Positions 22,591 to 40,898 of a stretch of 64,000 bases of DNA are shown here, piece by piece. The notes below the pieces were generated by a model. It saw nothing but the letters and a program-made list of their open reading frames with translations, searched no databases and had not been told where the DNA came from. Each line of letters starts with the position of its first letter. Positions within the stretch are counted from its first letter, which is position 1. This DNA comes from a phage: the sequence record PX880099.1; one strand, written 5' to 3'. A program made the translations under genes and the position numbers.

Positions 22591-22609
22591 TTTATTCTCC
22601 TAATAAGAA

Positions 22610-22625
22610 AGGGGCCGAAGCCCCT
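22610..22625 (-). other. conserved hairpin AGGGGCCGAAGCCCCT (copy 1 of 3)
   Basis: Identical 16-mer at 34715 and 40883; gives a UUCG-loop hairpin in leftward RNA. Confidence 0.6.
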
Positions 22626-22633
22626 TGAGTGGT

Positions 22634-23449
22634 TTATTTGTTTAAGTGGTCTTCGACCATTTTAATGAAACCTTCATTGCTGAAGGCTGTTGCAGCTTTT
22701 TCTCGGTAAACAAAAACTCCACGATCTTCATAGAGAAGTGTTTCTTCGTAATTAACTCCAGGGTTAACTACAACCATTTTTGTACCCATACTAAGCGCAG
22801 GGAATAATTCCCAATTAAAATTGATAACTTGGTTTGAACATCCTACTACTACAACCAAATCTTGCATGGTCAAAGTATCGAACAAGTGAGCCATATCTGC
22901 ATACAAAGGTGCAGCCTCACCAAAAAATACAACATTAGGCTTCACCCAGTTATAATCATCTATGTTTATACTATTGTAACCAATATCTACCAGTGTTTTG
23001 TAATCTCCAGGATGCATACGGTAAACTACTTCAGGAAGATATCCGTGCACGTGAATAACAGAATCTCTGTCTACACCTGCTCGCTCTAATAGATCATCAA
23101 CGTTTGTCGTCAAGTTTACTACTTGGTTAGGATATTCCTTAAACCACTTTGCTATTTGAATATGTGCAGCATTAGGTTGTACATCTTTAAGCTCAACACG
23201 TCTTTTGTTATAAAATTCGTGTGTTTTGGCATACAAATCCATACCGTTCTCGTCTACACCACCGACCACTGGAAGATCTGGAGATGTTCTAACACGATAA
23301 CCTGCTTGGAAAGCTCCAATATCGCAGACCTCTTCTAAATCATATTCTTCCCATAAGGCACGACCACTATCGGTGTCTGTTCGGAATGTTCTAATCCCAC
23401 TATCTGCACTTAAACCTGCACCGCTTACAAAAATCACTCGTCTTGGCAT
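22634..23449 (-). CDS. Sir2-family (sirtuin-like) protein
   Basis: VIFVSGAGLSADSGIRTFR (GAG..SGI.TFR), TTNVDDLLERAG (TQN.D.LHERAG-like), VIHVHG; no internal Zn-ribbon cysteines seen. Confidence 0.65.
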   Translation of the reverse strand: MPRRVIFVSGAGLSADSGIRTFRTDTDSGRALWEEYDLEEVCDIGAFQAGYRVRTSPDLPVVGGVDENGMDLYAKTHEFYNKRRVELKDVQPNAAHIQIAKWFKEYPNQVVNLTTNVDDLLERAGVDRDSVIHVHGYLPEVVYRMHPGDYKTLVDIGYNSINIDDYNWVKPNVVFFGEAAPLYADMAHLFDTLTMQDLVVVVGCSNQVINFNWELFPALSMGTKMVVVNPGVNYEETLLYEDRGVFVYREKAATAFSNEGFIKMVEDHLNK

Positions 23450-23925
23450 TCTTCCTCCTCATAATCATCATAATCTTCGTCATCCAAATCGTACACTTCG
23501 TCTTGAGAATAACTCACTTCAAAGTAAATATCAAACTCCGCAAACAAACGTAGAATGTTGGACATGCTATAATAATTATCGTAGGCAGATTCAGCTTCAT
23601 AGTAAACATAAAGCAAATGGTTAGCCTTATCATCTTCCAAATATTTCCCGTCTGCATACGCATAGTCTGCATATGCTTTACCTGCATCTTCCACAAGAGA
23701 ACGATCAAGCAGAGTAGGAAATGGTTTCTCTTTTTCTTTTAGTTTGCTCACCAACCAGTGTGCAATATCATGCCAATCTGCATCCTCTCCGCTGAAGCAG
23801 CTTGCGATTTCGCCAAACTTGGCATCTCCTAAGTCTCCGCTAATAGTGATCATGGTTGAACTATTGTAACCACAAGTTTCGCAATTTGAACAACTGTTGT
23901 GCACATGAATTTCTACTTGAAACAT
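23434..23925 (-). CDS. hypothetical protein with N-terminal Cys cluster and acidic C-terminal tail
   Basis: HNSCSNCETCGY near N-terminus; C-terminus DLDDEDYDDYEEEECQDE; stop overlaps Sir2-like start. Confidence 0.5.
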   Translation of the reverse strand: MFQVEIHVHNSCSNCETCGYNSSTMITISGDLGDAKFGEIASCFSGEDADWHDIAHWLVSKLKEKEKPFPTLLDRSLVEDAGKAYADYAYADGKYLEDDKANHLLYVYYEAESAYDNYYSMSNILRLFAEFDIYFEVSYSQDEVYDLDDEDYDDYEEEECQDE

Positions 23926-23936
23926 ATTCCCTCCTA

Positions 23937-23965
23937 TAAAAGAAAAGCCCCCTGAAACAGGAGGC
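23937..23965 (-). terminator. hairpin + U-tract on leftward strand
   Basis: Stem GCCCCCTG/CAGGAGGC (1 mismatch), followed on reverse strand by TTTTCTTTTA. Confidence 0.45.
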
Positions 23966-23983
23966 TTTGTTCAGATATCGGCA

Positions 23984-24637
23984 CTATACCAGACTTTCAA
24001 GGTATTTGTCAAGGGCTTCTTGATCACCTTGACAAACATAGCAACGGAAGTCTTGAGCCGAAGGTTGTTTATTTTCATCCCAGTCCCAATAAACATTACC
24101 CTTATAACGTGAACCAGGAAACTCAAAAGAGGCTGTATGTGTAATGTATCCTGGGCCACCAGTGAAATCACAGAATGAGAATTGGGGGTATGCCGCCTTT
24201 ACTGCCTCAATAAACCAAGCTTTACGATCTAAAGCTTCATTGATGCTATACGCATGTCTCTCCATTTCTTCCCACGTTTTCCAGACACTTCTTTCATCAG
24301 GAGAAAAGACAAGCCATTCTGGAAGGTAGAGAGTGTCATAGTAATCATCATATTCGATCTCGGAGGCGCACGAGGCTGACTCCTCCAGTCTTGAGTAATC
24401 AAAAGCAGAATATACCCACCAACCATCTTCCAGTAAGGCTTTGATAGGGACGAAGCCTTTATCAGCATATTGATCGAATTGTTTGACACGGTGGCTTGTG
24501 CAGTCTTCAAACTCACATTCTAAACGATATGACCCTTTTCGACGAGCCTCAAGACCGTGTGTACTGAAAATAACAACACTTCCTTCACCATCATTACGAT
24601 CTACTTGATAAGCAACTACTGGTTTTGAATTTGACAT
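23984..24637 (-). CDS. hypothetical protein (217 aa)
   Basis: ORF, last gene of leftward operon 23984-26651. Confidence 0.55.
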   Translation of the reverse strand: MSNSKPVVAYQVDRNDGEGSVVIFSTHGLEARRKGSYRLECEFEDCTSHRVKQFDQYADKGFVPIKALLEDGWWVYSAFDYSRLEESASCASEIEYDDYYDTLYLPEWLVFSPDERSVWKTWEEMERHAYSINEALDRKAWFIEAVKAAYPQFSFCDFTGGPGYITHTASFEFPGSRYKGNVYWDWDENKQPSAQDFRCYVCQGDQEALDKYLESLV

Positions 24638-25320
24638 TATTTCTCCTTATCTAGAAGATTATTAGACAAAAACACTGCACGGGCAAAACCACGTGCTGTT
24701 AGTGATCTAAGTTGTTTTGTTTTTGCACTAGCTCCACCTAAGCTTTTCCAACCCCAGAAGCAGCCTATATGATCTACTGGTTTCTTCACTGGTTGAACAA
24801 AACCATTGCCGTGCCAAATACAAGTTTTCTTTGTATACCCATCACGGGTAGGCATTTTAGGATGAAAGCTTCCTTCCTCTTCAAACAAATACCCACCATA
24901 CTCATAAGGATCAAAGTAAAAATCGGGTTTACGCCATAAGGTTGAAAGTTTACCTACTGGGTTCTCAATCATCCAAGGAACATTATATTTGTTACCCAAA
25001 GCTTCCACTACACGAATATTAGCTAAAGCTTCATCTAATTCCTCTGTGCTACGTTCGTGTTTGCTACCACTACCTGCTAACATAGTGCAAGGTGGAAATC
25101 CAAAAATAATATCGGGTTTAGGTATCCCATAATCTTCAGGGTTGAATGTAGAATCTATCCAGGCATTCACATAGGTTATGTTTGGGTGCTCCATCCTAAC
25201 CTCGTATTTACCGTGATCCCCTTCATCAGCGTTTACACAAAAACACTTGTGACCTGCTTCGGCATAACGTAACACCATGATCCCAGATCCGTCAAACATA
25301 GACAAAACTGTTTTACTCAT
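24637..25320 (-). CDS. C5-cytosine methyltransferase-like protein (short, about 228 aa)
   Basis: Motif I-like LSMFDGSG, motif IV-like FGFPPC, motif VI-like ENPVG; start moved to ATG 25320 (SD GGAGG). Confidence 0.45.
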   Translation of the reverse strand: MSKTVLSMFDGSGIMVLRYAEAGHKCFCVNADEGDHGKYEVRMEHPNITYVNAWIDSTFNPEDYGIPKPDIIFGFPPCTMLAGSGSKHERSTEELDEALANIRVVEALGNKYNVPWMIENPVGKLSTLWRKPDFYFDPYEYGGYLFEEEGSFHPKMPTRDGYTKKTCIWHGNGFVQPVKKPVDHIGCFWGWKSLGGASAKTKQLRSLTARGFARAVFLSNNLLDKEK

Positions 25321-25708
25321 TACCCCTCCATTCAAGACAAGCCATAACTTTACGCCAATCACTTTCTGTAAGAAAAATCTCGTTTGCTTTCTTCCACAAA
25401 TCTAAATCGTGAAGGGTTGGAATACGATATGTTAGTTCACAGAATCTATGCTCTTCTTCTGTAATATAACCAAAATGCAGAGCCACATCGTGAAACCAAC
25501 ACCAACCATGCATCTCTCGAACAACATGGTCATGTTGAGACATTGTTTTATGCCGTAAACCTAACCAACAAGGAACGGATACTTTAGTAGTCTTTAATCT
25601 GTGATCAACAGTATTAGAGTATTCAATAATAGCTGTCAGTTTCAATCGTGCTTTTTCTAAATCCTCATGCGTCACTTTGAAATAACTTTCTGAAAGATAT
25701 CCACACAT
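25313..25708 (-). CDS. hypothetical protein (131 aa)
   Basis: ATG 25708 with SD AAGGAGG 8 nt upstream; track start is TTG 25726. Confidence 0.5.
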   Translation of the reverse strand: MCGYLSESYFKVTHEDLEKARLKLTAIIEYSNTVDHRLKTTKVSVPCWLGLRHKTMSQHDHVVREMHGWCWFHDVALHFGYITEEEHRFCELTYRIPTLHDLDLWKKANEIFLTESDWRKVMACLEWRGNE

Positions 25709-25709
25709 A

Positions 25710-26651
25710 TTAATAACCTCCTTCAAAAGGCTTTACTACATGTTGATTAGCTTTAAAACGTTCAACATAGTCGTTTTCACCCATGTTTTCATATAGTTTA
25801 GTAACAACATAAAAGTTTTCCCAAGCATATTCCCTAAACCAACCACTAGTGATGGATGTGCAGACTTTAGATAAAGCCATTATAAAACTTTGCTTAGGGG
25901 TTGGACCTCCGATCTCTTCACCGAAAGGAATTTGTGAACGTTCCAAAGCCAAAACACACGCTTCTTCATAAACACCTAACAGGCGCACATGTTTTGGTTG
26001 AGCAAAAAACTTTTCTTTGCTGGTCATAACTTCACTTCCATCTTTCATATAAGATTTATATGCTGGAGCATCCATTACCGCGATTGCTTCATGGATAGAA
26101 TCATGATCATAAACATACGGAACCTCATCACCTTTAAAGAAGTCTTTACTTTTTACGTTTAAGTTTGGATGAGAGTAAGTGTATGTTTCTTTCTCACGCA
26201 ACTCATAAATACTCTTAAGATTTTCTGGGATCTTTGCGCCCAGTGATCGCATGAAATGAATATCTTTCATAGTTTTAAAGAAGTGAGGACTATCCTTTTT
26301 AAAACGATGACTCATTTTAAGAAGGTAGAGCACATCTAAAGGAGCAACAACGTGTCCAGCGTAAGTTCGACGAATATCATCAGAGTCTTCACAATAACTA
26401 ATCAAAGCTTCTGTGCTATCTCCTTGAGAAGCAATATCGTATTCCAAATGTGCACCAGCTATCATTTTGACATGGCCTTTGTTCCCTTTACGTTCTACAA
26501 GTTCAACAAACTCATCTTGAGAGAACATTTTTGATAATTCTTCCCACTCTTGTTCTGTACACAGGTAATCTAGATCTACACAAGGGCGATACAAGTCTTT
26601 TCCCATGTCCATAGCATGAATTTGTAATGCACGGCTACCAATTAACACCAT
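25710..26651 (-). CDS. hypothetical protein, possible nucleotidyltransferase-like N-terminus
   Basis: LIGSRAL...VDLD resembles GS...DxD; weak. Confidence 0.5.
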   Translation of the reverse strand: MVLIGSRALQIHAMDMGKDLYRPCVDLDYLCTEQEWEELSKMFSQDEFVELVERKGNKGHVKMIAGAHLEYDIASQGDSTEALISYCEDSDDIRRTYAGHVVAPLDVLYLLKMSHRFKKDSPHFFKTMKDIHFMRSLGAKIPENLKSIYELREKETYTYSHPNLNVKSKDFFKGDEVPYVYDHDSIHEAIAVMDAPAYKSYMKDGSEVMTSKEKFFAQPKHVRLLGVYEEACVLALERSQIPFGEEIGGPTPKQSFIMALSKVCTSITSGWFREYAWENFYVVTKLYENMGENDYVERFKANQHVVKPFEGGY

Positions 26652-26681
26652 AATATTTCTCCTCTATTGGTTGATAGGTTA

Positions 26682-26710
26682 AGTTTATCAAGCTTCCAGA
26701 TTCCTGTCAA
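26682..26710 (-). promoter_or_regulatory. leftward sigma70-like promoter (TTGACA-17-TAAACT)
   Basis: Reverse complement of 26705-26710 is TTGACA; of 26682-26687 is TAAACT. Confidence 0.5.
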
Positions 26711-26715
26711 TAAAA

Positions 26716-26733
26716 AACCCGCCGAAGCGGGTT
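26716..26733 (-). terminator. leftward terminator AACCCGC-UUCG-GCGGGUU + U5
   Basis: Hairpin with T-run on reverse strand (plus-strand AAAAA 26712-26716). Confidence 0.65.
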
Positions 26734-26741
26734 ATTATTTA

Positions 26742-27014
26742 CTAACACATTGAGGAAGAAGAGATCCAAACACCTCTTGTGGTTAAACCATTTTCATCCA
26801 ACTCTACACCATAATCTTCACAAATGAAATCAATATAGTGATCTGCGGCTGGCGTTCCTGTAGGGTAATAAGTTTCTCCGTTACCGTAGTCACCTATCCA
26901 AGCTTGTTCCTGGAACTGTTCACAAAGTTCTTCAATTTCCTTACGAAACTTTCTTTGTGCTTGTTCCATCTCTTTAACTTTCTTTTTTATCAGCAGTTCG
27001 CCTTCAGATTCCAC
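26742..27014 (-). CDS. small protein with C-terminal W-x-SSSS-x-C tail (family C, member 1)
   Basis: C-terminus TRGVWISSSSMC. Confidence 0.5.
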   Translation of the reverse strand: MESEGELLIKKKVKEMEQAQRKFRKEIEELCEQFQEQAWIGDYGNGETYYPTGTPAADHYIDFICEDYGVELDENGLTTRGVWISSSSMC

Positions 27015-27023
27015 AATCTCTCC

Positions 27024-27284
27024 TTAACAGCTACTACTGTGCCAAACGCCTTGAGAATTAACGACGAAACCATCATCACCTTCACCATAACAAGAAGAGG
27101 ATTGCCAATCTTCAAAACAGATTGCGTCATTTTCTAAACTAAGACCAAAACCAGCATCTTCAGCTTCTTTTGTAAGTTCGTCCACTAAAGCCATAATAGC
27201 TTGGGCTTTTTCAGTTAATTCTTCAACATTACGATCACTCATTAGTATTTCTCCTCCGGTTGGAAAACTGAACGACAAGCCCAC
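27024..27284 (-). CDS. small protein with C-terminal WHSSSC tail (family C, member 2)
   Basis: C-terminus SQGVWHSSSC plus internal EDWQSSSCYGEGDDGF. Confidence 0.5.
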   Translation of the reverse strand: MGLSFSFPTGGEILMSDRNVEELTEKAQAIMALVDELTKEAEDAGFGLSLENDAICFEDWQSSSCYGEGDDGFVVNSQGVWHSSSC

Positions 27285-27556
27285 ATACTAGCTTCTTTTA
27301 AATGTTTAATAGCACAACGGATTTGATCAATACGTTCGTATGCAAGATCTAATTCTTTTTCTGTGCCGTCAAAAGACCCATGATATGCTTCACAATACTC
27401 TTCCTCTAAAGCTTTGAAGATTAAACCTAAACGCTCTTCTGCATCTTTAATAGCGTTAACCTTGCCAATCTTATCGTCAGTATGCGCCTTATAACCTTTG
27501 ATATCTTCGATTCCCACTTTACCTCCTATTAACAACTTAAAGAAGATGGATGCCAA
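27242..27556 (-). CDS. hypothetical protein (104 aa)
   Basis: ORF. Confidence 0.45.
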   Translation of the reverse strand: MASIFFKLLIGGKVGIEDIKGYKAHTDDKIGKVNAIKDAEERLGLIFKALEEEYCEAYHGSFDGTEKELDLAYERIDQIRCAIKHLKEASMWACRSVFQPEEKY

Positions 27557-27726
27557 TTTGTTCCAGTATTCTCATTTTCATCTTCTGGATCATAATAACC
27601 ACCCATCCCATATTCAGGGGAGAAACGGAAACCTTTACCAGTCTCATCTGCTAACTGCTCTGCTTCCGCTAAAGCCTCATAAGCTGCTTTTACGGCTTCT
27701 TCTACTGTTTTAAACTTGGTCGTCAT
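27529..27726 (-). CDS. small protein with C-terminal WHPSSLSC tail (family C, member 3)
   Basis: C-terminus TGTNWHPSSLSC. Confidence 0.5.
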   Translation of the reverse strand: MTTKFKTVEEAVKAAYEALAEAEQLADETGKGFRFSPEYGMGGYYDPEDENENTGTNWHPSSLSC

Positions 27727-28000
27727 AAAATTTCTCCTCTCCTAAAGACATGTTGACATGAAATGCACGATATGTAAATTCGTTGTCCGTTGTGTTTGAA
27801 TAAAACTCAAATTGAACAACACCGTCTTGAGAAGACAGATACATGCCAATTTGAACTGTTCCTTCTGGTACCAGGTAAGCATACTCTGGACGTAGTGTTA
27901 CATTGTAAAAATAAAGTTCCCCAACACCCATTTCATCCCAAGCTTCCCAAGCGGTAACGAAGTTACTTTCAAAACTTGTTACTGATCCGAACTCTGCCAT
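27710..28000 (-). CDS. hypothetical protein (96 aa)
   Basis: ORF. Confidence 0.5.
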   Translation of the reverse strand: MAEFGSVTSFESNFVTAWEAWDEMGVGELYFYNVTLRPEYAYLVPEGTVQIGMYLSSQDGVVQFEFYSNTTDNEFTYRAFHVNMSLGEEKFYDDQV

Positions 28001-28491
28001 AAAACCTCCTCAATCTTGTAGTTTGACTCCATCTCCAACACATTTCCACGAACGTCTCTCCGAAGAAAGGCATAAGCTTTATTAGGTATTGTAGACTCAT
28101 ATTTAACCATATCTGGCACAGCAAAAGATACTACTACTCCTGCTGGGCTTCTGTCAAGAGCCTTATTAATATTTCTAAGGATATCGTTAGCCAAGATTTC
28201 TGCCAATTCTCCAAGAACAGTTTCGGTTATATCTTTATATCCCATTAAGTATTTGTTGATATCTTTCATCTCTGTATTGTTCAGAGTATAGTCCAAAGGA
28301 TAGAAATTCAAAGCGGAGTCACTTTTATGTGTCCACATGAAATGCACCCGATCCGAGCAGAATCGTAACCCTCTGTGAAGAATATCTTCTACAACAGGGA
28401 GAATTTCTTTTGTCACATCATTAACCATGTTGTAATCTAAGATTTCTGCCAAGTTTGTTCTTTGTTCACCACGTTTACGTTTAGGAATCAC
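27979..28491 (-). CDS. hypothetical protein (170 aa)
   Basis: ORF. Confidence 0.5.
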   Translation of the reverse strand: MIPKRKRGEQRTNLAEILDYNMVNDVTKEILPVVEDILHRGLRFCSDRVHFMWTHKSDSALNFYPLDYTLNNTEMKDINKYLMGYKDITETVLGELAEILANDILRNINKALDRSPAGVVVSFAVPDMVKYESTIPNKAYAFLRRDVRGNVLEMESNYKIEEVLWQSSDQ

Positions 28492-29062
28492 TTGTTATTG
28501 CCCTCATTACCAAAGGTCGTAGAAAATCGTAAATCTCTTGTTTTGTTTTCCCACGAATGTTTAAACAAGGAACATTATTGGCTTTAGCTATCTTCCAAGC
28601 CGTAGCTGTTCCACCTTTTGCATCTCCATGTTTATCAGTATTAGCACAAGCCAACAAGAAACATGATGGAGCAGGATTCTCCAAATCTCTACCTAACACT
28701 TGATGCACATTACGTTGGTGCAATTTTCTAGCACCCTGCTTAAGCTTTTCATAGGCTGGGTGAACATCTTTGATCCATTGCACAGAGATAGCATAGTTCA
28801 TTGTATCTGGTTTTGCAAGAACAATAACATCCCCTGGAATCTGATTACCTTTGAAATTTTCCCAAGGAACATAAATCTCCTTGTTAGTAGGATTTTCAGA
28901 CTCTTGGACACCTGTTTCAAAAGCAGAATCACTACCCTCTGCCTTCCCAGACCTTAATTTAAACCCAAGGTTTGAAAGCCATTTCCCTATGCCTACCATC
29001 AAAGCCCACTCTTCTTCGGATATGTCTCTACTTCCAACTCCCGTATAGAACAGTTCTGCCAT
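28481..29062 (-). CDS. DprA/Smf-like (SLOG-type Rossmann fold) protein
   Basis: FYTGVGSRD ... RSGKAEGSDSAFETG resembles the GxR ... SGGAxGxDxxA pattern; start at ATG 29062 (SD GAGGTG). Confidence 0.4.
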   Translation of the reverse strand: MAELFYTGVGSRDISEEEWALMVGIGKWLSNLGFKLRSGKAEGSDSAFETGVQESENPTNKEIYVPWENFKGNQIPGDVIVLAKPDTMNYAISVQWIKDVHPAYEKLKQGARKLHQRNVHQVLGRDLENPAPSCFLLACANTDKHGDAKGGTATAWKIAKANNVPCLNIRGKTKQEIYDFLRPLVMRAITSDS

Positions 29063-29069
29063 AATCACC

Positions 29070-29378
29070 TCAACAAGTAATTTCAAAAGGTGTATAGGGT
29101 TCCGTATTTCTCATGATCCAAGGACTGCTAGGATTGCTCGGATCATAAGGACCGAAAGGTTTTATGGTAGGTTGTGTTTCTTTCTTCTGAATCTCTTCAA
29201 AAATACGACGAAGTTCAGAATATTCTTGATCCACCATAAGATTCGGTGCATCTGATTCTACAGCTTGCAGGTTATTTTCCTTAAAAACAACCTCACGAAC
29301 AAGATTAACATCCTCTGTTTCTAAGATAACTTCTTTACGGATATTACCTACACTTTGAATAATTGTAATCTTATACAT
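29070..29378 (-). CDS. hypothetical protein (102 aa)
   Basis: ORF. Confidence 0.5.
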   Translation of the reverse strand: MYKITIIQSVGNIRKEVILETEDVNLVREVVFKENNLQAVESDAPNLMVDQEYSELRRIFEEIQKKETQPTIKPFGPYDPSNPSSPWIMRNTEPYTPFEITC

Positions 29379-30121
29379 TAATCCTCCTCAAGAGTTGAAT
29401 AAAATTGAAGACCACCGTCCATATCGAAATAAGCAAATGTTAAGTTATTATTGAACACAGATCCAGTATCCATATAAACACGATTCGCATTGATAATAGG
29501 TGTTTTTACATAAGAGTGTCCATGAAACACATAATCCACACCCATCACAACAGGAAGTTTCATTCCCTCTTTAGCACAGTCTACCATGTCTCTGTCCCAC
29601 ATAAGTGCTTCAGCAAAACGGTTTTCCTGTGTTTTTGTCATCTTCAAAATGTATTCTGGAATATCTGTTACAGGGAGATATTCCAAAGAAGATGGATACC
29701 CACCATGAATAAACGCAAGTTTCATGCCTCTGTAGTTAACAATGAGAACAACAGGTAAATCTTCTGTCATCATTGCTAAGGCTGTAGCTCCTTCTTCACC
29801 ACATTCTTCAAGGACCGTATATCCTCCATTTTGATACCAACACTCGAAGTAGCTACGATCTCCTTCCAGCATACCTTTAATCATCATATCTTCATGATTT
29901 CCACGAACAGCGTAGCGATTGTGTTTACGAGTAAATTCTAAAACACAACGAAAGTTTTGCTTTCCACGGTCAGTAAGATCTCCTAAAGATACAACTACAT
30001 CTGTATCTCGGATACCTAACTTTGCCTTTCCTTTTTCATACAAATTATAACAACCGTGTAGATCTCCAATTATAAAAAGATCTTGATCGCTTTTAACAGT
30101 AATTTCTCTGTGTATGATCAC
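29378..30121 (-). CDS. Ser/Thr protein phosphatase (calcineurin-like metallophosphoesterase)
   Basis: GDLHG, GDLTDRG, GNHE motifs. Confidence 0.85.
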   Translation of the reverse strand: MIIHREITVKSDQDLFIIGDLHGCYNLYEKGKAKLGIRDTDVVVSLGDLTDRGKQNFRCVLEFTRKHNRYAVRGNHEDMMIKGMLEGDRSYFECWYQNGGYTVLEECGEEGATALAMMTEDLPVVLIVNYRGMKLAFIHGGYPSSLEYLPVTDIPEYILKMTKTQENRFAEALMWDRDMVDCAKEGMKLPVVMGVDYVFHGHSYVKTPIINANRVYMDTGSVFNNNLTFAYFDMDGGLQFYSTLEED

Positions 30122-30447: not shown

Positions 30448-30457
30448 TCCTTCCTCC

Positions 30458-31239: not shown

Positions 31240-31284
31240 AATCCCTCCTTAAAATACTCCCTCCGAAAAGGGAGTATAAGTATA

Positions 31285-31724: not shown

Positions 31725-31736
31725 AGTTCACACTCC

Positions 31737-32664: not shown

Positions 32665-32709
32665 TATTAATCTCCTATGTTTAAGAAATGCCCCCGAAGG
32701 GGCAGTTTG

Positions 32710-33402: not shown

Positions 33403-33905
33403 TATTCTTCCTCCTCTGTTAATGTTTTAAGAACCGCTTTCCCGCCATTCACATATTTGCAGATGTATTCTATCGCACGTAGTGTCTCTTTGTCAACAAA
33501 AATTTGATCAGACGTTGCGAGCGGGTTATTAAGAAGATCACTGCAATCACGAACAAGCAGTGCTTTCTTATTAAACAAATTACTTAAGAACAGTAACTTC
33601 GCCTCTTCTTCTGTTATATGCAGAAGGCTAGGATCGGAGCCAGCTATTCCTATTATACAATCAAACAAGCTTTCTTTACTATCAGAAAGTTCTTGAAAAT
33701 GGTTTAAAAGCCAATCTTCTCCTAGACACCAACATTTAAACATTTCCAGTTTATCTCGGAGGGTCATATTCTCTAAAGTAAGAGCAATCTCTTTTTCAAT
33801 ATGGTTTACACAAATTTGACGAAATTCGTTAGGTTTTACGAGTCCCGTTTGATAGCACTCATCTATACCGCTTCTTCCGATAGCTATTGTTGCTACACCC
33901 ATCAA
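33402..33905 (-). CDS. hypothetical protein (167 aa) upstream of HslV-like gene
   Basis: ATGA-coupled to HslV-like ORF. Confidence 0.5.
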   Translation of the reverse strand: MMGVATIAIGRSGIDECYQTGLVKPNEFRQICVNHIEKEIALTLENMTLRDKLEMFKCWCLGEDWLLNHFQELSDSKESLFDCIIGIAGSDPSLLHITEEEAKLLFLSNLFNKKALLVRDCSDLLNNPLATSDQIFVDKETLRAIEYICKYVNGGKAVLKTLTEEEE

Positions 33906-33937
33906 TCCTCCTTATAAATGGCTTCCCTGCCATGTTA

Positions 33938-34696
33938 TTAAATAAACACTTCAGTAATCAGTTTAGACAAACGTCCACGTTTATTATCGTCCGTTGTCAG
34001 TTCAACGTATCCAATAAAATCTACAATTGGCTCACGAACACCTTCTTCATTTTCTGGATACAAAAGTTCCAAAATTTGATGCAGACCATTGCTACGTTTT
34101 TTAATTGCATATGTCTGGCGAACATCGCCTAATACAATAACATGCGTATTAATACCTGCACGTTCAATAAGAAGTTTAAGTGTTTCTGTTGACATAAGTT
34201 GTGCTTCGTCAATAATGACGATTGTATTATCCAGGGTAGCCCCCAACAAATAGTTAGGAATATTCAATTCGATCTTACCTGATCCAATATCGTTTTCCAA
34301 TTTGTTGGCTGTCATGAATTGCTGGAAAATACGTTTTGTAGATTCATAGTGTGCTGCTAGTTTATCTGTTTTATCCCCAGACAAGAAACCAATCTGGTCA
34401 TCTCCGACTTCAGTAGGGTTCTTAATAAAAAGTAGTTTACGGAAGTCTCCTGAACGAAGCATCTGCAAAGCTTTCCATAAAGCAACAGAGGTTTTACCAG
34501 TCCCTGCCGGAGCATTTACAACAGTCAGATCATTCCAAATCATACTTTGAACAATCTTATTTTGGTCCCCTTCAGGCATAAATTCATCTAAACGGTAATC
34601 GTCATTACCTACCGCTTTTGCTGCATAACGGCTTTCAATCTTTGCTGAATTAGCCAGTTTCTGCCGTTGTGTTTTAGCTGCGGTTTTATTTCCCAT
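33938..34696 (-). CDS. phoH: PhoH-like ATPase
   Basis: Walker A NAPAGTGKT; Walker B IIDEAQ; start taken at ATG 34696 (MGNKTAAK). Confidence 0.85.
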   Translation of the reverse strand: MGNKTAAKTQRQKLANSAKIESRYAAKAVGNDDYRLDEFMPEGDQNKIVQSMIWNDLTVVNAPAGTGKTSVALWKALQMLRSGDFRKLLFIKNPTEVGDDQIGFLSGDKTDKLAAHYESTKRIFQQFMTANKLENDIGSGKIELNIPNYLLGATLDNTIVIIDEAQLMSTETLKLLIERAGINTHVIVLGDVRQTYAIKKRSNGLHQILELLYPENEEGVREPIVDFIGYVELTTDDNKRGRLSKLITEVFI

Positions 34697-34714
34697 AGTA
34701 GCACTCCTTTTAGA

Positions 34715-34730
34715 AGGGGCCGAAGCCCCT
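34715..34730 (-). other. conserved hairpin AGGGGCCGAAGCCCCT (copy 2 of 3)
   Basis: Between lysozyme stop and phoH start. Confidence 0.6.
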
Positions 34731-34733
34731 TTA

Positions 34734-35234
34734 TTAGTTGTAAGCATCTAAAGTTCCAGAAGTCAGAACTTTAATTACTCGTTCAGCACGGTTTGGCGTC
34801 TGGCTATACCATCGGCTTTTACGCATGTTTTTACCTGCTTGAGTATAATATGCATTGCTGATTAAAGTCAAGCTATTTTGAAACCCTTCAGCACCTTTTA
34901 ACCCCAACTGGAAAACCATGTTGATTATTCCCAATTTACGAGTATCACTAACCTTATCATAGATTGGTGATAAGATAGTACTGTTTTTTATGTCTCTCTT
35001 CACTTTTGCAACATCGTCAGCAAAGATTTGACGGGCTTCTTTTTCTGTGATAACTCCATTAGTCTTACGACCAAGAAGATTATCTAAGATTTGAATAGCC
35101 TTTGCTTTATCTTTTATTTTAGTCAGAAGGTGTCCTATGCCGACTGTCCAATAACCAAGATGGTCTTGATAAACAGTAAGCTTCAGTCCTTCATCGACTC
35201 GTAGCATATCAAACTCATCTACTACTTTAGCCAT
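34734..35234 (-). CDS. T4-type lysozyme (endolysin, GH24)
   Basis: LRVDEGLKLTVYQDHLGYWTVGIGHLLTK and C-terminal RWYSQTPNRAERVI closely match T4 lysozyme. Confidence 0.95.
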   Translation of the reverse strand: MAKVVDEFDMLRVDEGLKLTVYQDHLGYWTVGIGHLLTKIKDKAKAIQILDNLLGRKTNGVITEKEARQIFADDVAKVKRDIKNSTILSPIYDKVSDTRKLGIINMVFQLGLKGAEGFQNSLTLISNAYYTQAGKNMRKSRWYSQTPNRAERVIKVLTSGTLDAYN

Positions 35235-35241
35235 TTACTTC

Positions 35242-35391
35242 CTATTCGTCGTCTCCTACTCCGTGATCCAACTCGTTAAACAACAGATGTTCTGGAGAAG
35301 TTTCACGTTTTGGTTTCGTTTTCTTTATGTTGGACTTCAGCTCATTTGCCAAAGCACGAGAAAAGATCTTACGTTTCTGTTTACTTTTCAT
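35242..35391 (-). CDS. small basic protein (49 aa)
   Basis: MKSKQKRKIFSRALANELKSNIKKTKPKRE...; below ORF-track cutoff. Confidence 0.3.
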   Translation of the reverse strand: MKSKQKRKIFSRALANELKSNIKKTKPKRETSPEHLLFNELDHGVGDDE

Positions 35392-35396
35392 AATTG

Positions 35397-35657
35397 TTAC
35401 TCCGCAATTTGAGCCATGAGATCACGCAGTTCGGTAAAACCGCCTACGTATGTTACCTCCCCGTTCACTTCAGACAGAATTTGTGGAAATGTGCGTGGAG
35501 GAACTCCGGTAAGATCAACAACTGTTTTAGTCATTGATTCTAAATCATAGTCTTGGTCAAGACTTAAATATTCAAACTGTTTATTGCGCATAGTCAATAG
35601 TTGTTTTGACATTTCACAAAATTGACAGTTAGGTTTACCAAAAATTACAAATTCCAT
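35397..35657 (-). CDS. glutaredoxin (thioredoxin-fold)
   Basis: FGKPNCQFCEMSK CxxC active-site-like; 86 aa; adjacent to rml and nrd genes. Confidence 0.7.
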   Translation of the reverse strand: MEFVIFGKPNCQFCEMSKQLLTMRNKQFEYLSLDQDYDLESMTKTVVDLTGVPPRTFPQILSEVNGEVTYVGGFTELRDLMAQIAE

Positions 35658-36499
35658 TACCTCTCCTTATTAAGTAATACTGCTAAAGACTGTTCAATAC
35701 CTTTATTTAAATCTGATTTTGTAAGATAGTGACTGGTTACTAGTTGTGACTTCACCGGACGTGCTGCTGGAGCATTATAGGTTGAAGCTGATACCGCCGA
35801 TATCTTAACAGGTTCTGGCATCTGTGTCAAGATCTTTTCCGCAAACTCCGCCCAAGAAATAAGATGGCTTCCTGCAAAATGGTAAGTCTTAACAGACCTT
35901 GACCAACCTGTTTTTAATACTTCAAAAATAGCTTCTGCTAAATCTGGAGCATATGTTGGACAAGAGAACTGATCAGCAACAATAATAAAATCACGTTGTC
36001 CATCATTATAGCGAGACAACATGGTTTTTAGAAAGTTATTTCCAAATTCGCTATATACCGAGGCTGTTCGAATAATATATGCATTTGGGTTAACTCCTCG
36101 CACCATTTTTTCACCAAGTTCTTTCGTATACCCATAATTGTTTATTGGGTTAGGTGTAGTATCTTCAAAAATAGGATGAGAATAATTAAAAATATAGTCT
36201 GTGGAAATATGCACAAAATCAATTTTAAGTTTGCTGCACACTGCCGCAATATTTGCAGGGCCATAAGCATTAACAGCCAAAGCAGTAGCAAAATCTTGTT
36301 CGGCTTTATCTACAGCCGTATAAGCGGCGCAATTAATAACACCATCTACATAATCTTCAATAATAGCGTTTCGCACAGCTTCAAAATTTGTAATATCTAC
36401 ACGTTCTTTAGGATAAATTAAAGATACATTTGCAGGGGCAACTTTACGTAAAGCTTGTCCCAGTTGTCCATTACCACCCAATACCAAATATGTTAGCAT
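35657..36499 (-). CDS. rmlD: dTDP-4-dehydrorhamnose reductase
   Basis: N-terminal YLVLGGNGQLG Rossmann motif; 280 aa; ATGA-coupled to rmlC. Confidence 0.8.
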   Translation of the reverse strand: MLTYLVLGGNGQLGQALRKVAPANVSLIYPKERVDITNFEAVRNAIIEDYVDGVINCAAYTAVDKAEQDFATALAVNAYGPANIAAVCSKLKIDFVHISTDYIFNYSHPIFEDTTPNPINNYGYTKELGEKMVRGVNPNAYIIRTASVYSEFGNNFLKTMLSRYNDGQRDFIIVADQFSCPTYAPDLAEAIFEVLKTGWSRSVKTYHFAGSHLISWAEFAEKILTQMPEPVKISAVSASTYNAPAARPVKSQLVTSHYLTKSDLNKGIEQSLAVLLNKER

Positions 36500-37059
36500 A
36501 CACCCTCGCTACGTAACTGTTGAAAAGATTTAGCCATTGCATCTTTTGTTGATAGGATAGGTTTAAAACCTTCATCAAAAATCATATCGAAGCCCCAATC
36601 GATCCCTATATCAGGATCATCCCAACGTAAACTTTGTTCACTAGAAGGGTCGTATGGAGTTGTGCATTTGTATTCAAAGATAGCATCCATACTCAAAACT
36701 ATAAAACCATGTGCCAAACCAGGTGGAAGCCAAAACTGCGTATGGTGTCGTGCACGAAGAACAACACCGTCCCAAGCACCGTAAGTAGGACTATCTTTAC
36801 GTAAGTCTACAGCGAAATCCAATACTTCACCACTTACACAACGAACAAGCTTACCTTGCGGATTATTTGTTTGAAAGTGCATTCCTCGCAAAACACCGAA
36901 GTTTGATTTAGACATGTTATCTTGAACGAAAGTTTGTCTACCAATAATATCTTCGTATTTTTGTTCATTATATGTTTCTAAAAAGAAACCACGGTCATCT
37001 TTATAAACGTCTGGTTTGATAATTACCGCACCTTCAATTTTTGTTTTTTCTACTTTCAT
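36493..37059 (-). CDS. rmlC: dTDP-4-dehydrorhamnose 3,5-epimerase
   Basis: [25 protein letters not shown]; start at ATG 37059 overlapping rmlA stop. Confidence 0.85.
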
Positions 37060-37934
37060 TTTCCCTCCGCTAATTTGAGTAGGTATTGCCCGTACTCTGT
37101 TTTCTTCAGTGAGTTTCCATGATAGACCAAAGTCTCTAAAGAAATCCACCCTTTTTTGAAAGCAATTTCTTCCAGGCACGCAATCTTCAATCCTTGACAG
37201 TTCTCAATAGTCTGCACGAATTGACCAGCTTCCATCAGACTGGCGTGTGTTCCTGTGTCAAGCCAAGTAAATCCTCGTCCGAGAACTTCTACTTGTAACT
37301 TCCTGTCTTCGAGGTAGCTGCGATTGATATCGGTGATCTCCAGTTCTCCACGCGCGGAAGGGGTTACTTCTAATGCACGTTGAATAACAGAGTTATCATA
37401 GAAATACAAACCTGTGACAGCATAATCTGATTTAGGATTTTCAGGTTTCTCTTCAATAGAAATAACTTGACGATTACTCCCAAATTCAACCACACCGAAT
37501 CGTTCAGGATCTTTCACCAAACACCCGAAGATACAAGCTCCGCCCCAAACATCTACCATCTCACTAGCGTTAATCAGTAGTTTACCAAAGCTTTGTCCGA
37601 AGAACAGGTTGTCACCTAAAATAAGAGCAACAGAGTCTTCTCCGATAAAATCTTTACCGATGATGAAAGCGTCCGCAAGACCTCGTGGCTCGGATTGGAT
37701 TGCGTAAGTGAGTTTTATCCCAAACATAGACCCATCTCCAAGAAGATGCTCAAAGTCTTCCTGATCGCCTGGTGTGGTGATGATTAAGATATCCTTAATG
37801 TCAGCCAACATCAATACCGATAAAGGGTAGTAGATCATGGGTTTGTCATACACAGGGAGCAATTGCTTGCTCACACTGCGTGTTACCGGATGAAGGCGGG
37901 TTCCACTTCCTCCCGCCAAAATAATACCTTTCAT
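37056..37934 (-). CDS. rmlA: glucose-1-phosphate thymidylyltransferase
   Basis: [39 protein letters not shown]. Confidence 0.9.
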
Positions 37935-37942
37935 AACCCTCC

Positions 37943-38935
37943 TTAAATCTTCTCACTCCACCATTGAGGGTTGTTTAAGTACCATTCAATCGTTGAGTAG
38001 AGATCTTGTTCAAATGTAGAGTTTGCACTCCAACCCAGTTCAGACTCTATTTTAGAAGGATTGATTTCATAACGCAAGTCATGTCCTTTACGATCTTCAA
38101 CAAAAGTTATCAAGTTGGAAGAAGGGTAGGTTCCTGCTTCTGGATGTACAGCATCCATGTAGTCACAAACCATATAGATGATCTCCATATTGGTTTTGGG
38201 ATTACGTGTTCCAACATTATACGTTTGACCTGGTTCTCCACCTGTTGCCACTTGAAGAATAGCTCGCGCATGATCCTCAACAAAAAGCCAGTCTCGCACC
38301 TGATCGCCTTTACCATACACCGGAATCTCTTTATTCGTCAAGATACTTGTGATGATTTTTGGGATCAGCTTTTCTGGATGTTGATAAGGTCCAAAGTTAT
38401 TGGAGCAGTTGGTTATCACAACAGGTAAACCGTAGGTACGGTACCAAGCTTTCACAAGATGGTCAGATGCTGCCTTAGACGCACTGTACGGGCTTGAAGG
38501 GGCATAAGCTGTCTCTTCGGTAAAGGGAACGCCAGAGTCTGCCATATCGCCGTACACTTCGTCTGTGGAGACGTGTACGAACATCTTCAGTTTATTTTTT
38601 GGGAGGAGCCTTGCAGCTTCCAATAAATTGTATGTGCCAATAATATTGGAGTCGATGAAAACTCGTGGATTCTTGATAGAATTATCCACATGACTCTCTG
38701 CCGCTAAGTGAATGATGAAATCGGGATTGCACTCTACTACTAAACTTTTGACCTGGGTTTCGTTTGCCAAATCTGTTATGCTTAGTTTAACGTGAGTGAT
38801 ATCGCCTACATTCTCAATATCTGCTGCATAGCCCATCTTATCAACGACAAAAACTTCGTTATTGGGATCTTGACAAAGAGAGCGCACCACGGCACTCCCA
38901 ATAAAACCAAGACCACCTGTTACCAGATAGCGCAT
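37943..38935 (-). CDS. rmlB: dTDP-glucose 4,6-dehydratase
   Basis: [30 protein letters not shown] (YxxxK), HVSTDEVYG. Confidence 0.9.
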
Positions 38936-38944
38936 CAGTTCTCC

Positions 38945-39271
38945 TTACCAGACATGTTGAGAAATAATAGTTTCCGTTTTAATGTTATATTTTTCAAGTA
39001 GCTTTGCATAGGCTTCTTTTGCATTCTCATTCAATTGCTCAAGATCTACAGCTATGCTTCCTTCTCCGCCTTCTAAATCAAGGCCATATATGCAATAAGA
39101 CTCATCCGCATCGTAGAAAGGAGAGATGCGGCTTAAGTCAAGACCTTCTTGTAAGAACCAGTTAAAATCTCCGTCAAATTCTTCTTCAATTCTAGGATCT
39201 TCTCCTACAGCCTCTTCCCACTTATTAAAAGGTGCACCCTGTAACATACGCCATTCGATATCAATACCCAT
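38945..39271 (-). CDS. hypothetical acidic protein (108 aa)
   Basis: ORF. Confidence 0.5.
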   Translation of the reverse strand: MGIDIEWRMLQGAPFNKWEEAVGEDPRIEEEFDGDFNWFLQEGLDLSRISPFYDADESYCIYGLDLEGGEGSIAVDLEQLNENAKEAYAKLLEKYNIKTETIISQHVW

Positions 39272-39425
39272 TTTTCATCTCCTCCTCTTCTTGAGCAGCT
39301 TTAATAATTGCTTCATAAATATCGTAAGCAATGCCTCCACAACATCTAGCTTCGAAAGCTATTGCTTCTGCAATGTGATCTGTTAATTCTCGTGGAATGC
39401 GAACATACTCTTTTTCACTCTCCAT
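39261..39425 (-). CDS. small hypothetical protein (54 aa)
   Basis: MESEKEYVRIPRELTDHIAEAIAFEARCCGG...; below ORF-track cutoff. Confidence 0.3.
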   Translation of the reverse strand: MESEKEYVRIPRELTDHIAEAIAFEARCCGGIAYDIYEAIIKAAQEEEEMKNGY

Positions 39426-39567
39426 CTTCTACCTCCAACCCTTCTTTTTCAAAGACTACTACTCGTCCCTCACCATGACAATTCAGGCAAGGAAATGTTA
39501 CCATAATTTCCACTTCCATCTGTCCCGTCCCACCGCACACAGGACAAAAAATAAGTTTTTCAGCCAC
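39415..39567 (-). CDS. small zinc-ribbon protein (50 aa, GTG start)
   Basis: SD AGGAGG then GTG; CPVCGG...CLNCHG. Confidence 0.35.
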   Translation of the reverse strand: MAEKLIFCPVCGGTGQMEVEIMVTFPCLNCHGEGRVVVFEKEGLEVEDGE

Positions 39568-39776
39568 TATTCCTCCTTAATTATTTCAAATTTGGCAACA
39601 CCATTTACAATAATATGACCACAAGACATAACTCCTAGCCAAGGATCGCCGTTTTTCTTCAGGCGTTTACCGAATACATCACAAAAACCATTCTTCATTT
39701 CAGAGGCTTCATAAGAAGCCCCTTTATCAAAAACGTCTTTGAATGTGTCAATTATACCAACACATTTCAAAATCAT
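39567..39776 (-). CDS. hypothetical protein (69 aa)
   Basis: ATGA-coupled to nrdB. Confidence 0.5.
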   Translation of the reverse strand: MILKCVGIIDTFKDVFDKGASYEASEMKNGFCDVFGKRLKKNGDPWLGVMSCGHIIVNGVAKFEIIKEE

Positions 39777-40861
39777 TCGAAGTCAAGCTCCTCATCATCA
39801 GAGAGATCTTTGTTAGCTGAATTCAATTTGTAGTTAGTTAACTGAATCTCTTGGGCTGCTGACTGAATCAAATCAGGATTCAACCATTTTTCCATCCAAG
39901 CTAAAGGGCTATGTTTAGGTGCTTTAAACTTGGCTTTCATTTTCAATCGACGATAAATAGGAGCAGCATTGAAATAAACCCACTGTTTAGACAATTCGGC
40001 GTTAAGACCTACAATAAAACGACCTTCACTAAACAGGTAGTCACACCACTGTTCCTCTTGTTCAACAACAGTGTCGAGGATCAAAGTCAACTCTTCAATA
40101 TTGTCTTCGTAAATTTTACGCCAAATTGGGTCATGCATCAATGCATCAATTACAGCATAATCCATCTTAACATGCAAGATTTCATCTAGCATAATTTTCT
40201 GGATCAGTTTACAAGCCCCAACAAACAGTTGTTGTTCTGCCATAGCAAAAGTAGCAGAGAAGGAAGATATAAACTGAATACCTTCTAATCCAATTAGGGC
40301 TACCATCCCTTTAAGAATCAGCAATCGAAGTTCATCGTTAGCTTCAATCAATCCTAGAGCATACTTATGACCAGCTTCTTCCAACTGACCCATGATATCA
40401 GCAATGATACCCATACGATTGAAAATTTTATCATTAATCATAATCTGATTGATGACTTCGATTGGATCTGGAGTACATTGACGGATTATTTCAGAATACG
40501 TTAACGCATGGAGAACTTCCATTTCACTCTGCTTCATCATCATAGCACAGGCTTCATTGTTACTCAAGAATGGAGAGAACAAAGTGATGATTGATTTTGC
40601 AAGAGAATCATTTTCCCATTGGAACGATAAGTTTTTAATCATAACATCATAGTTGTTTTTAGAACAAGCTACGAAATCTTTACGTGTCTGATCCAGATTG
40701 ACTTCATTCTCATCCCAATCTTGTGCTTTTTGAAGTTTGTAGAGTTTGTGCATCTCTGGATAAGTTACGTTAACAGAATCAAAGATCCCTAATTGTTCCC
40801 CTAAAAATACTGGATATTTTCCTGTTTTGTAAACTTCATTGTGTAAATTAATTGCTGCCAT
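39773..40861 (-). CDS. nrdB: ribonucleotide reductase small (beta) subunit, class I
   Basis: LIGLEGIQFISSFSATFAMAE, acidic C-terminal tail DDEELDFE. Confidence 0.85.
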   Translation of the reverse strand: MAAINLHNEVYKTGKYPVFLGEQLGIFDSVNVTYPEMHKLYKLQKAQDWDENEVNLDQTRKDFVACSKNNYDVMIKNLSFQWENDSLAKSIITLFSPFLSNNEACAMMMKQSEMEVLHALTYSEIIRQCTPDPIEVINQIMINDKIFNRMGIIADIMGQLEEAGHKYALGLIEANDELRLLILKGMVALIGLEGIQFISSFSATFAMAEQQLFVGACKLIQKIMLDEILHVKMDYAVIDALMHDPIWRKIYEDNIEELTLILDTVVEQEEQWCDYLFSEGRFIVGLNAELSKQWVYFNAAPIYRRLKMKAKFKAPKHSPLAWMEKWLNPDLIQSAAQEIQLTNYKLNSANKDLSDDEELDFE

Positions 40862-40882
40862 TTAAAATTCTCCTCAATAAAA

Positions 40883-40898
40883 AGGGGCCGAAGCCCCT
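40883..40898 (-). other. conserved hairpin AGGGGCCGAAGCCCCT (copy 3 of 3)
   Basis: Between nrdA stop and nrdB start. Confidence 0.6.

Follow-up and report, generated by a model that had tools for sequence, protein, structure and literature searches.

A phAPEC8-like E. coli myovirus (Phapecoctavirus; 98.6% identity to vB_EcoM_Schickermooser) carries three identical 16-nt hairpins that probably serve as leaky Rho-independent terminators on leftward mRNA, each hairpin then guarding the message upstream of it; we put the probability of this reading at roughly 75%. The stretch of DNA analyzed, referred to here as the window, is 64,000 nt long. As an earlier sequence-only reading had reported, the exact 16-mer, AGGGGCCGAAGCCCCT, lies at 22610-22625, 34715-34730, and 40883-40898. 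A count across the window returned exactly these three copies, and a search allowing up to 2 mismatches found no fourth. None is expected by chance (0 of 100 dinucleotide-preserving shuffles contained any match), and relaxing the search to GGGGCNNNNGCCCC while permitting 1 mismatch gave 4 matches in the window versus 0.21 expected. Read on the minus strand, every copy gives (A)AGGGGC-UUCG-GCCCCU(U), in agreement with the GGGGC-UUCG-GCCCC hairpin proposed for leftward RNA. The terminator indices quoted below have only an approximate zero point because the d'Aubenton-Carafa 1990 formula was paired with modern energy parameters.

Site 1, 22609..22626, minus strand: hairpin AAGGGGC-UUCG-GCCCCUU, then UCUUAUUAGGAG and an ATG at 22590; terminator index +13.8.
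Site 2, 34714..34731, minus strand: hairpin AAGGGGC-UUCG-GCCCCUU, then CUAAAAGGAG and an ATG at 34696; terminator index -11.5.
Site 3, 40883..40898, minus strand: hairpin AGGGGC-UUCG-GCCCCU, then UUUUAUUGAGGAG and the nrdB ATG at 40861; terminator index +27.3.

The three copies are intergenic on leftward genes, each preceded by a stop codon and followed by the ribosome-binding site of the next gene. Site 1 separates a Sir2-like gene (ORF 22634-23449) from AGGAG and a conserved 90-aa ORF (orf90); site 2 separates a phage lysozyme gene (stop at 34734) from AAGGAG and PhoH; and site 3 separates nrdA (stop at 40906) from GAGGAG and nrdB. Pfam matches on the flanking genes were SIR2, Phage_lysozyme, PhoH, Ribonuc_red_lgC, and Ribonuc_red_sm. 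The gap from stop to stem is 7 nt after the Sir2-like gene, 2 nt after lysozyme, and 7 nt after nrdA, and a Shine-Dalgarno sequence follows the hairpin by 4 to 9 nt. The resulting order of stop, 2 to 7 nt, hairpin, 4 to 9 nt, Shine-Dalgarno, and ATG is common to the three sites and to all relatives. No promoter-like site was found between hairpin and ATG at any of the three.

The statement that every copy falls between a stop and the next start stands, with the proviso that for site 2 this requires a PhoH start at 34696. This is the start annotated in phAPEC8, inny, and KP13-26, and its Shine-Dalgarno and ATGGGAAA are conserved in all relatives. The ESCO13 record instead takes the longest ORF, starting at 34747; that reading would run through the site 2 hairpin, and the ATG at 34747 is not conserved (GATTCT in L008).

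Each hairpin consists of 5 G-C pairs, 1 or 2 A-U pairs, and a 4-nt loop, and each is present in minimum-free-energy folds; at sites 1 and 3 the G-C core gives a hairpin energy of about -9.6 kcal/mol, with a stem of 5 to 7 bp. All three sites have a GC-rich stem-loop on the transcribed strand within the size limits for an intrinsic terminator (stem about 5-14 bp, loop 3-8 nt), in sense orientation past a stop codon, and a terminator consensus scan calls all of them. The 8 nt past the stem contain 6, 3, and 7 T's at sites 1, 2, and 3, respectively. Taking about 5 or more U's in 8 nt to define the U-tract of an intrinsic terminator, sites 1 (6/8) and 3 (7/8) have one and site 2 (3/8) does not. 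The earlier remark that U-tracts do not always follow is thus apt, among the three, for site 2 only; sites 1 and 3 have decent U-tracts, the latter having the shape of a canonical intrinsic terminator. Across lineages, the hairpin/U-tract index is positive in 6/6 for site 1 and 7/10 for site 3, and it is negative in 5/6 for site 2. Because the U-tract of site 2 is poor in most lineages, “terminator” may misname that copy. The sequence-only reading underrated the simplest explanation: sites 1 and 3 combine canonical U-tracts with the scores of ordinary Rho-independent terminators. The inspected records of relatives leave all three sites unannotated. A literature search on Phapecoctavirus and Stephanstirmvirinae for transcriptomes or mapped RNA ends returned nothing usable, its one RNA-seq match concerning a defense system and not phage transcripts.

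The window is rich in related structures. First-order Markov simulations predicted 14.4 perfect hairpins with a 4-nt loop and 0.11 with a UUCG loop, versus 32 and 6 observed, and all six UUCG hairpins are intergenic. Besides the three focal copies, the structures that bear on the argument are as follows.

21971..21988, plus strand: hairpin AACCCGC-UUCG-GCGGGUU in the rightward block; terminator index +26.0.
22291..22314, no single strand: bidirectional terminator AAAGGCACCC-ACUU-GGGUGCCUUU; terminator index +30 and +32 on the two strands.
26716..26733, minus strand: hairpin AACCCGC-UUCG-GCGGGUU; z = -4.5; terminator index +29.6.
32689..32704, minus strand: hairpin UGCCCC-UUCG-GGGGCA, then UUUCUUAAACAUAGGAG; missed by the sequence-only reading.
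47003..47021, minus strand: hairpin AGGGAGC-UUAUU-GCUCCCU, with UUUUUUAU running into a TTGACA-17-TATACT promoter (46996-46968); terminator index +31.5.

The hairpins at 21971 and 26716 are the same 18-mer on opposite DNA strands, with UUCG in the hairpin's own transcript each time. Both had been assigned to the leftward block, which is correct for 26716; the copy at 21971 belongs to the rightward block and has UUCG in rightward RNA. The 26716 hairpin has a UUUUUAU tail that runs into a TTGACA-17-TAAACT promoter (26710-26682), making a terminator-promoter composite. It is conserved with its UUCG loop in inny and KP13-26, and its equivalent in phAPEC8 is annotated as an ARNold terminator at 28198-28211; counting against the terminator reading, ARNold as run by the phAPEC8 authors called none of the three GGGGC sites. 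The bidirectional terminator sits where the rightward and leftward blocks converge and closes the leftward block, the one containing the three copies; its phAPEC8 equivalent is annotated as a terminator at 23789-23806. At the position matching 47003 in relatives, with orthology judged from offset alone (about 11,000-11,280 nt in a collinear block), the hairpin is of the GGGGC type, with a GAAA loop in inny and UUCG in KP13-26. A search of the whole window against Rfam at gathering thresholds returned only 14 tRNA matches (59677-62497) and no curated family at the focal hairpins.

Three lines of evidence show that selection acts on the RNA: sense orientation, stems kept while stable loops are exchanged, and compensatory changes at 32689. 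UUCG lies in the sense transcript in 6/6 UUCG hairpins of the window and 8/8 of the complete phAPEC8 genome, on either DNA strand, and the UNCG and GNRA loops of inny and KP13-26 are likewise sense oriented. In relatives whose proteins are as little as about 70% identical, all three sites retain an unchanged GGGGC/GCCCC stem. The loops vary, with GAAA or UACG at site 1; GCAA, GUAA, or GAAA at site 2; and UUCG, UUCA, GAAA, or a variant GGGGG-CUUUGU-CCCCC at site 3. The loop is UUCG, UACG, GAAA, GCAA, or GUAA in 9/11 distinct site-by-loop states, and the UNCG and GNRA classes make up 12/256 possible tetraloops. UNCG and GNRA tetraloops reportedly interchange at fixed positions in rRNA as well. 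The likeness is that two hyperstable loop classes switch at a fixed helix end with the stem kept, but the setting here is mRNA, in a short terminator hairpin, and not a structural RNA.

Since the three focal stems never vary, they provide no covariation evidence. Such evidence comes from the orthologues of the 32689 hairpin, where both sides vary in 4/7 stem pairs and 94% of cells remain paired (an alignment of 5 sequences, loop-anchored by hand). The covariation score of this 5-sequence alignment was reached by 0/500 shuffles, and slid registers gave none. We also ruled out a plus-strand DNA mini-hairpin with a CGAA loop, as the sense strand of relatives reads GAAA, GCAA, or GUAA and orientation tracks transcription, not DNA strand.

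These hairpins closely resemble the C(UUCG)G hairpins of phage T4, defined as (X)2-8 CUUCGG (Y)2-8 with X complementary to Y and mainly intergenic (Tuerk et al. 1988, PNAS 85:1364, as summarized in PMC8948821). The focal hairpins fit that definition as GGGG-CUUCGG-CCCC and share with the T4 elements a position just past stops, sense orientation, T-rich tails, and even an identical AAGGGGCTTCGGCCCCT. The latter is tabulated, after hoc and e.6, among the Rho-independent terminators predicted for a T4-like phage, together with many further CUUCGG terminators (PMC5931544, Table 2). That list also includes GNRA-loop variants (GCAA at nrdB; GAAA at RNA C and gene 54), paralleling the loop exchange at the window's three sites. 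The phage studied here belongs to Stephanstirmvirinae, not Tevenvirinae, and the resemblance is therefore one of convergence, not homology. Supporting wide use of this hairpin, IMG/VR contains at least 125 copies of the exact 16-mer in at least 120 unrelated viral contigs with GC contents of 33-64%; among the 125 copies listed, 100 have at least 4 T's in the 8 bases that follow on the UUCG side. On the favored reading, the three copies are identical because this is the minimal optimal terminator hairpin that many phages have reached, and not because they are copies of a mobile repeat.

The structure, RNA-strand orientation, conservation, and terminator-like tails of the three copies are seen directly, and from them we infer termination, read-through, and stabilization. 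The copies are independent, orthologously conserved intercistronic RNA hairpins, each having a 5-bp G-C stem with a C-G closing pair, a hyperstable UUCG cap, and 1 or 2 flanking A-U pairs. Sites 1 and 3, where a U-tract follows the hairpin, would act as ordinary intrinsic terminators; like those of E. coli, they combine a 5- to 7-bp stem, a 4-nt loop, and 6 or 7 U's in the next 8 nt, although the focal stems are close to the lower limit of length. Site 2, with only 3 U's in 8, probably terminates weakly and may function mainly as a structural 3′ cap or pause. Given that no promoter lies between hairpin and next gene, termination is likely leaky or the role is likely 3′-end protection, and with the Shine-Dalgarno only 4 to 9 nt away, some polymerases presumably read through. 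A possible mechanism for leakiness is repression by the ribosome: a model terminator a few base pairs past a translated stop is almost fully repressed (PMC4824070), and the focal stems stand 2 to 7 nt past theirs. The hairpin remaining at the 3′ end would shield the upstream message from 3′-exonucleases, and the upstream gene (nrdA, lysozyme, or Sir2-like) would obtain more mRNA than the downstream gene.

The sequence-only reading had suggested RNA stabilizers or processing sites that set differential expression within long operons. The part concerning RNA-level hairpins that modulate expression is supported by the orientation, the stems and loops, and the compensation at 32689, and a stabilizer role, which has precedent, is plausible. 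Processing by RNase III, whose sites comprise a duplex of roughly 20 bp or longer that is often broken by an internal loop, is rejected, as stems of 5 to 7 bp are far too short and no longer conserved helix surrounds them. A version in which the hairpins never terminate, with an RNase E-type cut in the A/U-rich spacer, the hairpin capping the upstream 3′ end, and differential decay within the operon, is unlikely but is the strongest competitor. It would account for the conservation of site 2 across the subfamily despite its poor U-tract, and for genes such as nrdB that have no room for their own promoter past the hairpin, such that transcripts must cross it; stabilizing roles have also been reported for CUUCGG hairpins in T4, according to the summary in PMC8948821. 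A pure stabilizer would not need the 6 or 7 T's in 8 nt kept at sites 1 and 3, however, nor the T-runs that follow most of the 125 listed copies elsewhere. We consider it improbable, to a greater degree, that AAGGGGC-tetraloop-GCCCCUU is a dedicated, sequence-specific posttranscriptional mark, where an RNA-decay or antitermination factor of host or phage origin might dock or stop and so set nrdA:nrdB and lysozyme:PhoH ratios, or else a short homology patch guiding cassette exchange at the nrdA|nrdB hotspot. Bearing on this idea are the invariance of the stem at at least three loci across genera and the retention of site 2 without a U-tract.

Two further proposals are very unlikely. One treats the copies as repeats of a DNA-level element, such as a short patch of homology serving recombination and module exchange, like the PeSLs of T4, a palindrome that moves, or a site recognized by a protein or nuclease. 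Three identical 16- to 18-mers in one genome invite this view, as does the nrdA|nrdB junction beside site 3, which in relatives may be uninterrupted or may carry an ORF of roughly 320 bp or a gene for an HNH endonuclease (an apparent 1-kb “insertion” there in vB_EcoM_01, PP129558, is an assembly artifact with an N run and a duplicated junction). Comeau, Arbiol and Krisch (2014, PMC4122927) proposed that PeSLs (promoter-early stem-loops), in which a terminator stem-loop is joined directly to an early sigma-70-type promoter, mediate shuffling in T4-like phages, and the stem-loops at 26716 and 47003 resemble them in being fused to a sigma-70-type promoter (UUUUUUAUUGACA...), but that trait is confined to these two; no promoter adjoins the three focal copies, which are thus not PeSLs. 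The copies are alike only within the hairpin, with just T-rich tails and Shine-Dalgarno motifs beyond, and each has a positional orthologue in distant relatives, indicating that they are old and independent and not recently spread. A mobile REP- or MITE-like palindrome, which should have conserved sequence beyond the palindrome and a patchy distribution in close relatives, is excluded by unrelated flanks and orthologous positions across genera, and loops of UACG, GCAA, and UUCG at the three sites of a single relative (IMGVR_UViG_3300014004_000001) argue against concerted evolution or gene conversion. Hairpin orientation also follows transcription, and we saw no sign of indel mediation by the focal copies: the one indel examined, a deletion in the window, sits between two GGAGGATT ribosome-binding-site repeats and not hairpins. 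The other proposal is translational, with the hairpin shielding the downstream ribosome-binding site from structure upstream or bringing stop and start close for coupling or reinitiation. The identical stop-hairpin-Shine-Dalgarno-ATG arrangement at the three sites and in all relatives is consistent with it, but so compact a layout is what one expects of any terminator when a phage genome is tightly packed. The hairpin also occurs where no gene follows (site 1 of KP13-26) and before promoters (26716 and 47003), and nothing specific favors coupling.

The three hairpins are the standard short GC stem and UUCG loop with which T4 and many other phages end or protect mRNA past a gene, and are newly seen examples of a well-known kind. 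The finding is an ordinary one that raises no new biological question, its class of mechanism having been known since 1988, and its value is for annotation. Likely transcript ends or attenuation points, absent from the Phapecoctavirus records inspected, can be placed at the hairpins, and the hairpins help settle one start codon, that of PhoH, at 34696 and not 34747. They also illustrate, cleanly and on a small scale, how UNCG and GNRA tetraloops swap on a fixed stem in mRNA terminators.

The 16-mer AGGGGCCGAAGCCCCT occurs at exactly 22610, 34715, and 40883 (0 copies expected by chance), and no further copies with up to two mismatches were found in the window. Their minus-strand sequence is (A)AGGGGC-UUCG-GCCCCU(U), confirming the nonrandom exact repetition and the leftward GGGGC-UUCG-GCCCC hairpin described in the sequence-only reading. 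From end to end, the 22000-42000 region is 98-98.7% identical to phAPEC8-like E. coli myoviruses (Phapecoctavirus, Stephanstirmvirinae), with vB_EcoM_Schickermooser as top match. GC skew and the ORF map delimit a rightward gene block up to ~22300, a leftward block (~22300-58300) that holds all three copies, and then a rightward block that includes clustered tRNA genes (14 at 59677-62497, plus strand; the phAPEC8 annotation has 11 in the same place). A Pfam check of flanking genes placed the copies as follows.

22610, minus strand: site 1, between a Sir2-family protein gene and a conserved 90-aa ORF (orf90)
34715, minus strand: site 2, between the phage lysozyme and PhoH genes
40883, minus strand: site 3, between nrdA and nrdB

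Counted from the stop codon of the preceding gene, the stems start after 7, 2, and 7 nt at sites 1, 2, and 3; an AGGAG-type Shine-Dalgarno sequence follows 4-9 nt past the end of each stem. The proposed stop-to-start position holds at sites 1 and 3, and site 2 would likewise be intergenic if PhoH begins at 34696 (minus strand). That start is used by the related phages phAPEC8, inny, and KP13-26 and is kept, ribosome-binding site included, in all relatives; the longest-ORF start at 34747 (minus strand), used in ESCO13, passes through the hairpin, overlaps the lysozyme gene, and is not conserved. With its conserved Shine-Dalgarno sequence and ATG, 34696 is likely the true start.

A consensus terminator scan lists all three sites on the minus strand. 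The terminator index, an approximate hairpin/U-tract score (formula after d'Aubenton-Carafa et al. 1990, energies from ViennaRNA), came to +13.8 at site 1, -11.5 at site 2, and +27.3 at site 3, compared with +20 to +32 for clear unit-end terminators in the window. It was positive in 6/6 lineages for site 1 and 7/10 for site 3, and negative in 5/6 for site 2. By these values and signs, sites 1 and 3 look like ordinary intrinsic terminators, and site 2 combines a conserved hairpin with a poor U-tract; the earlier remark that U-tracts do not always follow the hairpins fits site 2 and not the other two.

No promoter-like site lies between hairpin and next start codon at any of the three sites, and we therefore infer that transcription reaches nrdB, PhoH, and orf90 by read-through past the hairpins. 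Unlike these, the hairpins at 26716 and 47003 directly adjoin TTGACA promoters. In these terminator-promoter composites (26682-26733 and 46968-47021, both minus strand), the U-tract enters the -35 box (UUUUUUAUUGACA...), an architecture resembling the promoter-early stem-loop (PeSL) motifs of T4-like phages. In a published experiment, a model terminator a few base pairs past a translated stop codon was almost completely repressed, with full efficiency only beyond ~30 bp (PMC4824070); such repression would offer a mechanism for the read-through.

We compared the syntenic blocks of Justusliebigvirus inny and Klebsiella phage KP13-26, as well as IMG/VR loci for which PhoH, nrdA, and the Sir2-like protein served as anchors. 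The GGGGC/GCCCC stem is unchanged at all three sites in these relatives, and the loop differs.

Site 1 loops in the window and relatives: UUCG, UACG, GAAA
Site 2 loops in the window and relatives: UUCG, GCAA, GUAA, GAAA
Site 3 loops in the window and relatives: UUCG, GAAA, UUCA (in phAPEC8, on a GGGGC stem), or a GGGGG-CUUUGU-CCCCC variant

Nine of the 11 distinct site-by-loop states are of the UNCG or GNRA class (12 of 256 possible tetraloops), as expected if a stable RNA hairpin is under selection; neither a DNA motif nor a loop-reading protein predicts this exchange. Because the focal stems never vary in the relatives compared, they yield no covariation. In the sister hairpin at 32689, 4/7 pairs changed on both sides and 94% of cells are paired, in a small alignment of five orthologues anchored by hand on the loop; slid registers gave no covariation.

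Scanning the window for perfect stems of ≥5 bp with 4-nt loops returned 32 hairpins versus 14.4 expected, and 6 with UUCG loops versus 0.11 expected. Those 6 are the three copies plus the following.

26716, minus strand: UUCG hairpin
32689, minus strand: UUCG hairpin
21971, plus strand: UUCG hairpin

The 21971 and 26716 hairpins have the 18-mer AACCCGCUUCGGCGGGUU in common, on opposite DNA strands of oppositely transcribed blocks, so each carries UUCG in its own mRNA. Both had been assigned to the leftward block, which is correct for 26716 only. All 8 UUCG hairpins in the complete phAPEC8 genome are in sense orientation. That phage also has a fourth GGGGC-stem hairpin (RNA loop UUCU) just 3' of the DNA polymerase gene (~3590-3603 of the fetched locus L004, record 103590), a region beyond the window. 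Four further hairpins were seen in the window.

31254-31277, minus strand: 9-bp hairpin AUACUCCCU-UUUCGG-AGGGAGUAU, then UUUAAGGAGG, filling a further gap between genes of the leftward block
63018-63031, plus strand: terminator-like GGGGC-UUU-GCCCC, 3' of a rightward-block ORF whose end is at 63002
63055-63085, plus strand: terminator-like CCCCUCUCCGAAAGGUUAGGGG then a U-run, 3' of the same ORF
297-312, plus strand: perfect hairpin GCGGCA-AUGG-UGCCGC, ~12 nt past a TTGACA-16-TAATAT promoter-like site (257-284)

The last has 7 copies in phAPEC8 early regions, annotated there "PHIRE promoter"; instead of a promoter, the element may be an operator or a 5'-terminal stem-loop of early transcripts.

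The nrdA|nrdB junction is polymorphic among relatives (window, 40861-40906; fetched loci L002, 42316-42723, and L167, 710-1366). In the window, nrdB lies directly 3' of the hairpin with no extra ORF; phAPEC8, ESCO13, inny, and KP13-26 have an extra ORF of ~110 aa there. The nieznany, iGC_PHA_EC001, and VivaForever phages carry an HNH endonuclease gene at the junction; in nieznany, the one inspected of the three, this gene separates the nrdA stop from the hairpin. T4 has mobE between nrdA and nrdB. An apparent 1-kb insertion in vB_EcoM_01 (PP129558.1, L168 ~760-1640) was dismissed as an assembly/scaffolding artefact, being an N run flanked by duplicated junction.

Three identical copies could represent a mobile or recombination-guiding repeat. 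This is unlikely: the copies have unrelated flanks and occupy orthologous positions in different genera. Moreover, the only indel inspected, the ~320-bp small ORF present at the nrdA|nrdB junction of phAPEC8, inny, and KP13-26 and absent from the window, has its ends in two GGAGGATT ribosome-binding-site repeats, not in hairpins. The window's shorter junction looks like a deletion between these repeats. IMGVR_UViG_3300014004_000001 has UACG, GCAA, and UUCG loops at the three sites, so the copies evolve independently, without homogenisation.

The sequence-only reading proposed RNA stabilisers or processing sites. The stems are too short for RNase III processing. Sequence alone does not separate a purely post-transcriptional stabiliser role from leaky termination; site 2 is where such a role is most plausible. 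What stands from that proposal is that RNA hairpins would tune expression within operons. It missed the canonical terminator form of two of the three copies, and also that their motif is the phage C(UUCG)G hairpin, a classic element. Exact copies of the 16-mer AGGGGCTTCGGCCCCT number at least 125, spread over at least 120 unrelated IMG/VR contigs whose GC content ranges from 33% to 64%; among the matches listed, 100/125 occurrences have T at ≥4 of the next 8 bases on the UUCG side (mean, 4.9 T versus 1.3 A). In a study of a T4-like phage, whose authors checked predicted terminators against the phiSITE database, the predicted Rho-independent terminators include TAATCATAAGGGGCTTCGGCCCCTTTCTTCATTT, located after hoc, and ATAATGATAAGGGGCTTCGGCCCCTATTACTTGG, located after e.6, with CUUCGG loops in most Table 2 entries and GNRA loops in a few (PMC5931544); PMC8948821 cites Tuerk et al. 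for phage CUUCGG hairpins. The three-copy pattern is explained by a textbook element, and sites 1 to 3 are unannotated, newly noted instances of the already known C(UUCG)G hairpin class.
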